Made by a program: the position numbers and the translations under genes. DNA of 64,000 bases from NCBI GenBank assembly GCA_963803805.1, contig CAWDOD010000002.1:1280001-1344000 (forward strand), written 5' to 3'. The stretch is from an uncultured cyanobacterium (GTDB lineage: Bacteria; Cyanobacteriota; Cyanobacteriia; Cyanobacteriales; CAWCAG01). Under the pieces are notes generated by a model that saw only the letters and a list, made by a program, of their open reading frames with translations, was not told the DNA's origin and ran no database searches. Each line of letters starts with the position of its first letter. Position 1 is the first letter of the stretch. This document shows, piece by piece, positions 10,556-12,535 of this stretch.

Positions 10556-11152
10556 TTAATTCAACTCGGAGTTGAACTCGTTGAAGGAACGCCTTTTCAA
10601 CTCCACTGACTCAGAACGAGGTAGGAGATCAAATACTTCCCGGAAAACACTATCAATGTCTTCAAACTTAGCTTGTCCAGTTTGATTAAAGACAATCTCA
10701 CGATTTTGATTTAGTAAGACAGTTTGAGGAATTGCCCCTTGGTAGTAATAACCTACTTCTTCAGGACTGTATTCAGCCTTGATCGGAATAGAATCGACAT
10801 TGATGGGAATAAAACTCGCTACTTTGCCGTAAAATCGCTGTAACTGAGAGATAACCTCAGAAAATCTTTTACAATCGCTGCTATCTTCTACATAAAAAAC
10901 TAACAGAGCAACTTTATCTCTTTGGAAAGATTCTACTAAGGTCATGCGAGGGGGGACTAAAGAGCCATTCCCGGCATAAAGAGCAAAGATATTGCCATCA
11001 AACCTGTCGTCTTCAAGCCCTGCTTTGGCTGAGGGGGTTCCGAAAAGCAAGAAACTGCTTAGCCCAGCTATGAGTATTATTGAGCAAAAACGAAAGCAAA
11101 TTTTTCTTAACTGAAGGTTATTTAGCCAGTGGTGCAACCGCGAAAAAATCAT
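10556..11152 (-). CDS. Thioredoxin-fold thylakoid membrane protein (photosystem I accumulation factor-like)
   Basis: Signal/TM then DDRFDGNIFALYAGNGSLVPP; start trimmed to ATG 11152 because the longer ORF overlaps the tRNA. Confidence 0.7.
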   Translation of the reverse strand: MIFSRLHHWLNNLQLRKICFRFCSIILIAGLSSFLLFGTPSAKAGLEDDRFDGNIFALYAGNGSLVPPRMTLVESFQRDKVALLVFYVEDSSDCKRFSEVISQLQRFYGKVASFIPINVDSIPIKAEYSPEEVGYYYQGAIPQTVLLNQNREIVFNQTGQAKFEDIDSVFREVFDLLPRSESVELKRRSFNEFNSELN

Positions 11153-11236
11153 AAGGTTCTTTTTACCAATTAAATCAGCTATTATTAATAGTACAGCTAG
11201 GGGCTGTGGCTCAGTTGGATAGAGCAAGCGCCTCCT

Positions 11237-12086
11237 GAACAATCGGGCCTCTTGGGGGAAACTCCAGGTAGTGAATGCGGTCAAATTCAAGGAAGCCTAA
11301 GTCTGTTTAAACAGAGAGGGTAATCTTGAGCCAAGCTTATATTTGTCTATATAGACAAGTTATTTGAAGGTGCAGAGACTGGTTGAATGAGAGCTAAAAA
11401 ATGATGGACTATGATGTCTCATCAAAAGTAGAGCAAAGAGGCATTCTGGCCGGGATGTTATTGGGTGCAGGCAGGAGAAATAAACAAAATTTCTATCTTC
11501 TAAACCTGAATTTGCCAGAGGAATATGTTCTATTTAAAAAGCAACTCCTTGAACAAATCATCCGTAAGCCAGTTAGTCTTCGGGAAAGAAAAACTAAAAA
11601 CGGTACTGCCTTAATACGCTTAGAGCCAAAGTTAATTCCCTTAACTAGGGTTTTGGTTAAAAAGTTTTATCAAGGAACAACTCCTAAAATTACGAGGAAG
11701 TTTCTTGGTCTTCTAACCCTTCCTAGTATCGCAATTTGGTTTATGGATAAAGGTTCTAAATCTTTTAAGAGAAAGAACGGAAAAATCCATAGCCTGGAAG
11801 TTAACTTCAATACCAATATCTGCCAAGCAGAAAACGAGTTGATAGTAGCTTATTTTGCTGAAGTTTGGGGTTTTAAGTGGGGATTAAGCCAAGGTAGAAA
11901 CGCTTACCGTTTAAGGATGGGGACGAAAGAAGGTAAAAGGTTTTTCCGTTTCCTTCATCCCTATATTCATCCCGCTATGCTCTACAAAATAGAAACCTCT
12001 TGTCAACATAACGGCCGCCACCTAAAAGAGTTTTGTTCTTATGGTGAAGGGATAGTCCAGAGAGTGGGGAAACTCACACAAATCTG
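11237..12086 (+). ncRNA. Group I intron (IC3/Azoarcus-like core), 850 nt, containing a LAGLIDADG ORF
   Basis: Exon U before 5' splice site and terminal G at 12086; P1 CCT|GA-ACAA-TCGGG; P2 with GAAA loop (11251-11268); AAATTCAAGGAA..AATCTTGAGCCAAG P4-P6; P7 GAGACT (11375-11380)/TAGTCC (12053-12058); P3 GCGGTC/GGCCGC; P8 CCTAA..TATGG receptor; P9 GTGGG-GAAA-CTCAC. Confidence 0.92.
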
Positions 12087-12087
12087 A
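11401..12087 (+). CDS. Intron-encoded double-motif LAGLIDADG (I-SceI-like) protein lacking catalytic aspartates; candidate maturase
   Basis: ILAGMLLGAG and SIAIWFMDKG match I-SceI GIGLILGDA and LAYWFMDDG; domain ends HPYIHPAMLYKI (cf. KPYLIPQMMYKL); very basic. Confidence 0.85.
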   Translation: MMDYDVSSKVEQRGILAGMLLGAGRRNKQNFYLLNLNLPEEYVLFKKQLLEQIIRKPVSLRERKTKNGTALIRLEPKLIPLTRVLVKKFYQGTTPKITRKFLGLLTLPSIAIWFMDKGSKSFKRKNGKIHSLEVNFNTNICQAENELIVAYFAEVWGFKWGLSQGRNAYRLRMGTKEGKRFFRFLHPYIHPAMLYKIETSCQHNGRHLKEFCSYGEGIVQRVGKLTQI

Positions 12088-12535
12088 AGCGCTAGGTCGC
12101 CGGTTCAAATCCGGCCAGTCCCGTTTTTTCAATGCTCAATGCTAAGTTATCTTGGTTTAGCCACTTAAGTTCAATCTAGTATAAGTAATAGTTTGTCTAA
12201 GTTCAGTTGGTTATTAAATCTTTTGAATTTACATAACTTCAACTTAAAATTTGTCAAGTCCCAAAAATTTCTCCAAAGGACGCATTTGTGTGGTTTAATT
12301 AGGAAATCAGAAAATTACACTGCTACGTTTTTGTCTAAAGTCAACATCAAATCTCTATAAGGTAGATAAATCGTTGGTTTTGATGCTATTTTTCCACAAA
12401 AGCATAGTGATAAGAAGGGCTAGGTCGAACAAATTTTGAGGCAATTTCAAAAGTTTTTTTGACAAATAAAGCGCTTTAAGTTAGAAGCAATTTGCTTGTG
12501 ACTTTTTTTGTCTATTCCATTTTTCTTCCTTGACA

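Follow-up and report, generated by a model that had tools for sequence, protein, structure and literature searches.

A LAGLIDADG reading frame that stops across the 3' splice site of a cyanobacterial tRNA-Arg(CCU) group I intron, probably as a by-product of a frameshift

Within a 64,000-nucleotide stretch of DNA from an uncultured cyanobacterium (the window), a group I intron in a tRNA-Arg(CCU) gene was found to carry a LAGLIDADG ORF whose TGA stop codon straddles the 3' splice site, being composed of a U of helix P9.0, the terminal G of the intron and A37 of the tRNA (12085..12087; this and all other features lie on the + strand). The junction-spanning stop is real, and it is probably an incidental and recently derived state. 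The anatomy of the intron, an indel in the lineage of the window, the distribution of stops among homologs and the invariance of the junction triplet in introns that lack the ORF were each established directly.

The host gene occupies positions 11200-12123 and is interrupted after U36 by an 850-nt intron resembling the IC3 tRNA introns (11237..12086, with G11237 first and the terminal G12086 last), as recognized from ORF-less homologs above the Rfam cut-off, their consensus fold and a contig joint. The 5' exon (11200..11236; anticodon CCT at 11234-11236) matches the intronless tRNA-Arg(cct) genes of four relatives, as does the 3' exon (12087..12123), which extends to the discriminator G12123 and is followed by a run of T. 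When joined, the two exons read ...CCTCCT/AAGCGCT... across the junction, exactly as do the intronless genes called by ARAGORN in the relatives (four of four), with the same anticodon arm and the anticodon CCU. An unambiguous joint from 11236 to 12087, skipping 850 nt, was observed in two of the four sequencing runs, all of which consisted of contigs and not raw reads. The exon match and this joint together establish that the terminal G of the intron is G12086 and that the 3' exon opens with A12087, the nucleotide next after the anticodon CCU (tRNA A37), so that the boundaries fit those given in the earlier note. ARAGORN called no tRNA in the window or at the ORF-less homolog loci, the intron being too long for the program. 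Two other sets of joints (11338 to 12040/12041 and 11642 to 12043) were taken to reflect the introns of other organisms, given their short sides (20-22 letters) or intervening letters.

The local sequence reads ...ATC TGA AGC..., with T12085, G12086 and A12087, and the sole + strand ORF (11401..12087; 228 codons plus TGA) includes this stop, such that both the sequence and the boundaries seen in intronless relatives agree with the splitting of the codon as TG/A that had been noted earlier. Read in silico, the excised linear intron provides 228 sense codons and two left-over bases with no stop in frame; at the sequence level, RNAs retaining the 3' exon are the only species that carry the stop, in keeping with the earlier note. 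If the intron ends are joined in silico to form a circle, the frame gains 21 residues before a TAA at 11298-11300, and the earlier arithmetic on this point was right. The excised intron had further been regarded as a non-stop message and a likely substrate for tmRNA; the lack of a stop holds in silico and the genome from which the window comes encodes a tmRNA (125.3 bits versus a cut-off of 47), while the role as a substrate is a prediction. RNA-library contigs of X2 span 11379-11996 at 95-99+% likeness, for which carry-over of DNA is possible, and as contigs instead of raw reads they and the other runs are uninformative about RNA ends, strand, circles and expression. No joint from 12086 to 11237, as expected of a circle, was listed, a result that in such data is neutral with regard to circles.

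The Rfam model Intron_gpI (RF00028) scored the window at 43.3 bits (E 9.4e-09; gathering cut-off 50), the 3' half of the model being forced into the ORF. Four of four ORF-less homologs that share the 5' and 3' parts of this intron exceeded the cut-off (57, 59.5, 67 and 83.5 bits), and the cyanobacterial ORF-less copies above it measure 204-330 nt. A consensus fold generated with RNAalifold from an alignment of 20 ORF-less homologs, with the window left out and its helices mapped by eye, comprised 62 pairs, 26 of them with compensatory changes, and covered P3, P4, P5, P6 and P8. In P1 (11234..11247), the exon CCU and the first two intron bases pair with 11243-11247 (consensus columns 7-11 with 17-21); the wobble at the 5' splice site, U11236-G11245 in the window, is U-G in all 20 aligned homologs (columns 9 and 19), and 57 of 57 introns terminate with ...TCTG, with G as the last base. 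The 5' strand of P3 (11277..11282) pairs with its 3' strand, P3' (12013..12018), as supported by the Rfam structure line, the Rfam alignment of an ORF-less homolog, the consensus fold and 4 + 1 compensatory changes in homologs. There follow the P8 hairpin (12019..12046; columns 328-339 with 384-394, with compensatory changes and the Rfam alignment in agreement) and J8/7 with the 3' strand of P7 (12047..12057), which is near-invariant in 30 of 30 introns. The putative P7 pairing of 11377-81 with 12053-57 was read by eye alone because, as a pseudoknot crossing P3, it is absent from nested models. P9.0 (12058-61 with 12083-86; columns 406-409 with 432-435) ends in the terminal G, and P9 (12064-68 with 12073-77; columns 412-417 with 422-426) bears a GAAA loop. 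By the Rfam homolog alignment and the consensus fold, the last ~25 codons of the ORF thus traverse P3', P8, J8/7 and the 3' strand of P7, P9.0 and P9, which bears out the earlier statement that the 3' part of the frame reads through P3, P8, P7 and P9; with the ORF lying over core helices, ribosomes and ribozyme folding would compete for the same RNA.

The loop that holds the ORF, between P7 and P3', appears to be closed by a long-range helix (5' strand 11382..11393, 3' strand 11997..12007), a duplex that was predicted in seven ORF-bearing introns; its E was -17.0 in L001 (shuffled -5.9, sd 2.1) and it was weaker in the window, with an E of -11.1 (shuffled -7.7, sd 2.5). In the lineage of the window, the 3' strand has gained a single nucleotide, near 12001-12003, and the frame is shifted as a result. 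A Shine-Dalgarno-like GAGAG (11389-11393) lies within the 5' strand, 7 nt ahead of the ATG. A scan for internal promoters and terminators gave only chance levels, with two promoter-like sites versus 2.8 expected.

All 57 distinct homologous introns examined, of which 20 lack an ORF, have the TG/A triplet at the junction, and the triplet is thus unrelated to the presence of an ORF. The U preceding the terminal G is paired in the predicted P9.0 of the ORF-less homologs (A-U in 18 and G-U in 2 of 20). In all of 30 introns the frame leading to the junction likewise stays open over 10 codons or more, and in 29 of these over 14 or more; both this frame and the triplet also occur in introns that have no ORF. 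Whether homologous introns place their stop at the junction had been proposed as a check, and the position proved not to be conserved. In 37 distinct ORF-bearing introns, the frame ends at a UAA 59 nt upstream of the intron end in 20 and at a UAA 44 nt upstream in 9, with single cases at 45, 57, 64, 73, 80 and 199 nt upstream; the junction is used in two, the window and G436 (58% identity). The usual stop of the family is the UAA within CACCUAA, a conserved motif of the P8 5' strand; in the window this UAA (TAA, 12023..12025) is out of frame. As judged by C-termini, the P8 UAA is the stop in 70 of 120 protein clusters and a junction tail occurs in 4, these classes having been assigned by regular expressions on gene-caller C-termini, with 25 of the 120 ('distant' 15, 'other' 10) lacking a placement on the ribozyme. 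Among 17 homologous loci, none ends at the junction and 12 end at CACC/TAA, 59 nt upstream, and of the 69 genomes with the ORF in an order-level sample of 401, two have matches that reach residue 228 without an internal stop.

The sister species G001, of the same genus (87% identity), shares the frameshift and stops at a TGA 45 nt upstream of the intron end. In alignment A1, a 1-column gap at column 838 was observed in all eight Coleofasciculus rows, identifying a 1-nt insertion in the lineage of the window; the window differs from Coleofasciculus by a 1-nt and a 2-nt indel. The insertion moved the frame off the P8 UAA and, given that the frame thereby entered is stop-free from P8 to the junction in the 30 introns checked, the junction triplet became the next stop. 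The resulting C-terminal tail (residues 201-228; 12001..12084) has no counterpart in canonical homologs in the protein alignment, and its residues 203-228 are predicted to be disordered.

These observations suggest the following course of events. The ancestral ORF of the intron family, housed in the loop of the extra helix between P7 and P3', would have passed P3' and stopped at the UAA of CACCUAA in the P8 5' strand, and in the genus of the window the extra nucleotide immediately 5' of P3' shifted the frame past that UAA. Beyond P8, the ribozyme sequence appears to set one fixed backstop for each frame: a UGA in the P8 3' strand, a UAG in J8/7 and, for a third frame without stops through P7, P9.0 and P9, the U of P9.0 with the terminal G and A37. 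The window lies in this third frame, the choice among backstops depending on how long the P8 loop is, modulo 3, and the 28-residue tail would be a by-product coded by the ribozyme core. A frameshift together with the RNA constraints on a base of P9.0, on the last G of the intron and on A37 of the tRNA would then suffice for a striking coincidence of codon and splice site, and the position of the junction stop is probably not under selection.

A quick IQ-TREE phylogeny of the protein clusters requires three changes for the junction-stop state. The window groups with P0002 (support 98), and the sister group of this pair consists of two clusters that end at the canonical stop (support 99); another frameshift, with loss of the ancestral stop, marks a 95-supported clade of five clusters with three different stop positions; within sister clusters, P0086 stops at the junction and P0079 at the UAG in J8/7. 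The junction stop hence has at least two independent origins (the window clade; G436/P0026 and P0086), and 4 of 8 clusters or loci among the frameshift lineages that bypass the UAA stop there. Both observations weigh against an incidental origin, in that the recurrence could be read as convergence and the junction is not rare within the UAA-bypassing subset.

The earlier note had seen in this arrangement a built-in feedback, in which complete protein would be produced solely from the precursor or the intron-3' exon intermediate, tmRNA would rescue run-off and supply would track the precursor. The stop-free linear intron, the tmRNA gene and the appearance of the junction stop in at least two lineages are in keeping with it, and such control would make sense if the protein were a maturase. 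Selection for this feedback is nonetheless improbable because the stops of homologs lie at scattered positions, with 20 of 37 at the P8 UAA, and the junction is used in just 2 of those 37 introns and 4 of 120 clusters; moreover, in the sister species the frame ends 45 nt earlier, the sister clusters P0086 and P0079 disagree, the triplet and its open frame occur without any ORF, and the tail is predicted to be disordered. The sequence-level consequences of the earlier note thus stand, and its feedback interpretation is not supported. Judging from the relatives, a conserved control device is not the favoured reading, and the junction stop would be a rare side effect of frameshifting instead. A narrower version, confined to the few junction-stop lineages, would have a nuclease-dead maturase completed only on RNA with the 3' exon, tmRNA clearing the excised intron and a self-switching supply of convergent origin; we regard this as very unlikely.

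The protein encoded by the ORF is of the I-SceI type. It matched Pfam PF03161 (LAGLIDADG_2) at 96.1 bits versus a cut-off of 25 and the sequence of PDB 6x1j with an E of 5.6e-06. Its predicted structure had a mean pLDDT of 88 and a pTM of 0.83, with residues 1-202 predicted confidently and residues 203-228 at pLDDT < 50; the best fold matches were I-WcaI (TM 0.71) and I-SceI (TM 0.68), and the bI3 maturase ranked eighth (TM 0.51). The Asp closing each LAGLIDADG motif, an established catalytic residue, is replaced at both sites, by A23 (11467-69) and K117 (11749-51), the alignments showing GD changed to GA and MDDG to MDKG. Across the 120 clusters, the acidic residue ending each motif is missing from both motifs in 67, retained in one in 20 and retained in both in 33; a Coleofasciculus homolog has kept both Asp.

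The two replacements, the C-terminal frameshift and a visibly broken homolog (L018, with a 169-codon open frame and three internal TAA) could together indicate a decaying pseudogene, that is, a dead homing endonuclease gene yielding no useful protein, for which the position of the stop would be without consequence. This is improbable, given that dN/dS is 0.18 between the window and G001 (dS 0.378; 195 codons) and 0.25 between L012 and L013, both nuclease-dead pairs, compared with 0.14 for a homolog pair keeping both Asp, that a long open frame is retained in 36 of the 37 distinct ORF-bearing introns, and that the fold is predicted with the confidence noted above. Loss of the Asp residues coupled with purifying selection suggests a nuclease-dead protein maintained by selection, possibly as a maturase, for which the nuclease residues would be dispensable. 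The protein is probably still functional, and a role in assisting splicing as a cofactor is the likeliest. Such a role is plausible in view of the missing Asp and the low dN/dS, and to that extent it counts in favour of feedback; a protein under purifying selection is also probably made, and where its stop lies could matter; this too is a point against regarding the junction stop as incidental.

Known IC3 tRNA introns include those of Azoarcus tRNA-Ile(CAU), Agrobacterium tRNA-Arg(CCU) and cyanobacterial tRNA-Leu(UAA), of which, to our knowledge, the classical examples have no ORF. Like them, the intron in the window interrupts the anticodon loop and has a short P1 that includes a U-G wobble, as well as a core arranged as P3-P8 followed by P9.0 and a P9 with a GAAA loop, and its 3' end region presumably resembles that of the Azoarcus intron; it differs in the 687-nt ORF between P7 and P3'. 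The Synechocystis tRNA-fMet intron, which Bonocora and Shub are said to have described with its endonuclease in 2001, is likewise a cyanobacterial group I intron of the anticodon loop that bears an endonuclease ORF, although it resides in a tRNA other than tRNA-Arg(CCU) and its endonuclease, as we understand it, belongs to a different nuclease family and not to LAGLIDADG. With I-SceI and I-WcaI (PDB 1r7m, 6x1j), the window protein shares the LAGLIDADG_2 family, by both sequence and fold, but lacks the Asp at the end of each motif. Like the LAGLIDADG maturases (bI3, PDB 2ab5; I-AniI), it is intron-encoded and conserved despite the loss of nuclease residues, whereas its closest folds are nucleases and its host is a cyanobacterial tRNA gene. 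IC3-type bacterial tRNA introns are mentioned in PMC5733544. The accessible text of PMC3984707 cites the Thermotoga neapolitana 23S intron protein among LAGLIDADG maturases and describes homing endonuclease ORFs that run on into the core of group I introns (Figure 2b legend). The 3' end of the window ORF overlaps core helices in the same manner as the cases in that text, but its overlap takes in the final nucleotide of the intron and the one that opens the 3' exon; that portion of PMC3984707 makes no mention of a stop codon divided by the 3' splice site. In the literature searched, which excluded most subscription journals, no description was found of an ORF-bearing cyanobacterial tRNA-Arg(CCU) intron, of a group I 3' splice site that falls within a stop codon, or of tmRNA action on an excised intron.

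The intron family offers a clean natural case of ORF ends that would drift among backstop codons imposed by a ribozyme. An I-SceI-type protein that is mostly devoid of active-site residues and under purifying selection would represent a candidate family of bacterial group I intron maturases, few of which are known to us. Were the non-stop consequence true in the strain, a single movable stop codon would provide a genetic handle on the coupling of translation and splicing in a tRNA intron. A widespread cyanobacterial tRNA-Arg(CCU) intron is also documented here, the ORF being present in 69 of the 401 genomes sampled from the order; a phylum-wide protein search gave matches in 6 of 401, with one genome newly added.

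The tRNA-Arg(CCU) gene of the window was read from the sequence at 11200-12123, split after the third anticodon base; ARAGORN, run on the window, missed this gene. The 5' splice-site side reads ...GCGCCTCCT|GAACAATC... and the 3' side ...AATCTG|AAGCGCT.... Intronless tRNA-Arg(cct) genes of relatives (...CCTCCTAAGCGCT...) were recognized by ARAGORN in four of four cases, and contigs from two of four public runs join 11236 to 12087, skipping exactly 850 bases without ambiguity. Such joints are intronless alleles from other organisms and no proof of splicing; together with the intronless genes, they therefore define the intron as 11237-12086, with G12086 as its terminal G and the 3' exon beginning at A12087, which upholds the 3' splice site proposed in the earlier note. 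A mechanical ORF list also holds a 244-aa, TTG-started frame on the minus strand (10556-11290), covering the tRNA 5' exon together with the beginning of the intron; its true start probably lies further downstream.

With the Rfam group I model the window reached only 43.3 bits (E 9.4e-09), short of the required 50, because the model is unable to bridge the inserted ORF and pushes its 3' half into coding sequence; four of four ORF-less homologs that share the 5' and 3' parts passed (57 to 83.5 bits). The consensus fold of 20 ORF-less homologs comprises P1, with its U-G wobble in 20/20, P2, P3, P4, P5, P6, P8, a P9.0-like helix between CAGA and the final four intron bases, and P9, with compensatory changes in 26 of 62 pairs. 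Mapped onto the plus strand of the window, it places P3' at 12013-18, P8 at 12019-46, J8/7 and the P7 3' strand at 12047-57 (P7 read by eye only), and P9.0 with P9 at 12058-86. The ORF (11401..12087, plus strand; 228 codons and TGA) encodes a LAGLIDADG_2 protein (PF03161, 96.1 bits, residues 13-181) and, as had been claimed, passes through P3', P8, the P7 3' strand and P9; both the sequence and the ORF listing bear out a stop at T12085-G12086-A12087, straddling the splice site. The sliced sequence likewise agreed with the RNA products foreseen: the excised linear intron holds 228 sense codons and two left-over bases without a stop, and in a full-length circle the protein would gain 21 residues, those listed in the note, before TAA at 11298-11300.

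The earlier note had read this arrangement as a built-in feedback acting through a non-stop excised intron and tmRNA. When homologous introns were checked, however, the stop position was found not to be conserved, the homologs ending at scattered sites. A first set of 17 ORF-bearing introns, from eight Coleofasciculus loci and nine loci of relatives, all occupying the same site of the same tRNA gene, includes no junction stop (0/17): 12 end at the TAA of CACC|TAA in the P8 5' strand, 59 nt short of the end of the intron, another three at a TAA 57, 64 or 73 nt upstream of that end, and one has a broken ORF; in G001, a same-genus relative with 87% identity, a TGA lies 45 nt upstream. An order-level sample held the ORF in 69 of 401 genomes, and residue 228 was reached without an internal stop in only two of these 69 matches, the window and genome G436, whose junction, checked on its DNA, reads ...ATC|TGA|AGCGCT. 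Pooled and de-duplicated, with locus L076 left out, the loci amount to 57 distinct introns, 37 with the ORF and 20 without; among the 37, the stop is a TAA 59 nt upstream of the intron end in 20 and 44 nt upstream in nine, a TGA at the junction in two, and a single stop 45, 57, 64, 73, 80 or 199 nt upstream in the other six.

At the protein level, matches at E <= 1e-10 numbered 155, and the best 120, analysed as clusters, were sorted by C-terminus with our own patterns: 70 clusters have the P8-UAA tail, 16 have the UAA replaced and a stop a few codons on within P8, three end in ...VKE (UAG in J8/7), two are frameshifted with a stop inside P8, and four carry the junction tail, namely the window, P0002 (87%), P0026 (57%) and P0086 (54%); the remaining 25, a more distant subgroup of 15 and 10 others, lie outside the ribozyme-position assignment. 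A quick maximum-likelihood tree requires three changes to account for the junction state. It groups the window with P0002 (support 98), this pair being sister to two canonical-stop clusters (support 99), and a five-cluster clade (support 95) sharing a different frameshift shows three different stops, with P0086 (junction) sister to P0079 (UAG in J8/7). Within the distant subgroup, the frame of P0111 (231 aa, 51% identity) also crosses the conserved J8/7-P7 segment (...GEGIVQ...) before passing into 3' sequence of another kind, perhaps a further case of translation into or beyond a splice site, within some other type of intron.

The junction triplet is TG|A in 57/57 distinct introns, including the 20 without the ORF, and each of its bases is fixed for reasons other than the ORF: the U is base-paired within the predicted P9.0 (A-U in 18/20, G-U in 2/20), the G closes the intron as its terminal G, and the A occupies tRNA position 37. 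Upstream of TG|A, the frame that ends there holds at least 10 codons without a stop in 30/30 introns and at least 14, from the P8 3' strand onward, in 29/30, ORF or not. Between 12040 and 12087 of the window, one frame meets a first backstop, TGA in the P8 3' strand, another a second, TAG in J8/7, and the third is open to the junction; all three outcomes occur among lineages without the P8 stop. Against all eight Coleofasciculus rows of nucleotide alignment A1, the window carries a 1-nt insertion just upstream of P3' and a P8 loop 2 nt longer. Owing to the insertion, TAA at 12023-25 is out of frame and now read cTA Aaa, and the longer loop brings translation back into the frame open to the junction. 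G001 carries the same 1-nt change (tail ...TSCQHNGRHLKE...) with a different P8 loop in an intron of 851 nt, vs 850 in the window, and meets TGA in P8. The model of the window protein (mean pLDDT 88, pTM 0.83) is confident at residues 1-202 and falls below pLDDT 50 at 203-228, the frameshifted part. The straddling stop is thus quite probably a by-product; the junction arrangement is both rare and unstable from one sister taxon to the next, and RNA constraints together with an indel account for it.

If the ORF were translated from excised intron RNA, ribosomes would meet a 3' end without a stop; the window's genome encodes a tmRNA (125.3 bits). Ribosomes reading to 12087 would cover P3', P8, the P7 3' strand and P9 and hence compete with ribozyme folding, a competition that would apply, to a lesser degree, to all homologs, the ORFs of which cross P3' and enter P8. 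A scan for an internal promoter found none that stands out. A review (PMC3984707, figure legend) already describes ORFs overlapping group I core sequence, an overlap of which the stop codon divided between intron and 3' exon is a variant; neither such a split stop nor this ORF-bearing cyanobacterial tRNA-Arg(CCU) intron was found described in the open-access literature, which most subscription journals lie outside.

The ORF is located between the P7 5' strand and P3', outside any classical peripheral loop. In seven of seven ORF-bearing introns examined by duplex prediction, bases directly 3' of P7 pair with the last conserved ORF codons. At Coleofasciculus locus L001, GUUUAAGGA pairs with UCCUUAAAC (E -17.0 vs shuffled -5.9, sd 2.1); the window helix, 11382-11393 with 11997-12007 on the plus strand, is weak (GUUGA..GAGAG with CUCUU.UCAAC; E -11.1 vs shuffled -7.7, sd 2.5) and would close an ORF loop of roughly 620 nt. 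The pairing covaries across lineages (AAGGA/UCCUU vs GAGAG/CUCUU). The last conserved codons lie in the 3' strand of this helix and a Shine-Dalgarno-like purine run in its 5' strand, and therefore the folded ribozyme may mask the ribosome-binding site.

More promising as a lead than the straddling stop is the protein family itself, nuclease-dead yet conserved. The best fold matches of the model are I-WcaI (TM 0.71) and I-SceI (TM 0.68). The Asp residues that end the LAGLIDADG motifs are active-site residues; in sequence alignments with these two enzymes both are replaced, GD by GA at residue 23 (11467-11469, plus strand) and MDDG by MDKG at residue 117 (11749-11751, plus strand). Among the best 120 of the 155 matches, 33 clusters have an acidic residue at both positions, 20 at one and 67 at neither, the last including all four junction clusters. 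The ORF is nevertheless intact in 36 of the 37 distinct ORF-bearing introns, and dN/dS was 0.18 between the window and G001 (195 codons, dS 0.378) and 0.25 between loci L012 and L013, all nuclease-dead, and 0.14 between Coleofasciculus loci L001 and L003, which keep both Asp, more distant pairs being saturated and left out. At the sequence level, purifying selection on the ORF is evident, and the nuclease-dead protein is most likely kept for another function, probably to help splice an intron with a core interrupted by ~640 nt. The family thus looks like one of candidate bacterial group I intron maturases or otherwise domesticated proteins. Maturases derived from LAGLIDADG nucleases are already known: one source records a bacterial LAGLIDADG maturase for a Thermotoga 23S intron (PMC3984707), and another describes the route from endonuclease to maturase (PMC3943268).

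Among 61 related genomes (G000-G060), the intron 3' core was found in 32 and the ORF in only 10; nine matched the query in the exon only, and the four of these that were examined hold intronless tRNA-Arg(CCU) genes. As expected, this patchy pattern of intron and ORF fits the life cycle of a homing endonuclease. The 20 ORF-less introns (loci L022-L049) have a 40-90-nt hairpin exactly at the ORF place in 12 cases and nothing in eight, the hairpins being either remnants of ORF loss or an ancestral landing hairpin. A group II intron domain (61 bits to RF00029) occurs on the minus strand of locus L022 (genome G053) at 1187-1264, and ~280 nt separate it from the tRNA-Arg group I intron.
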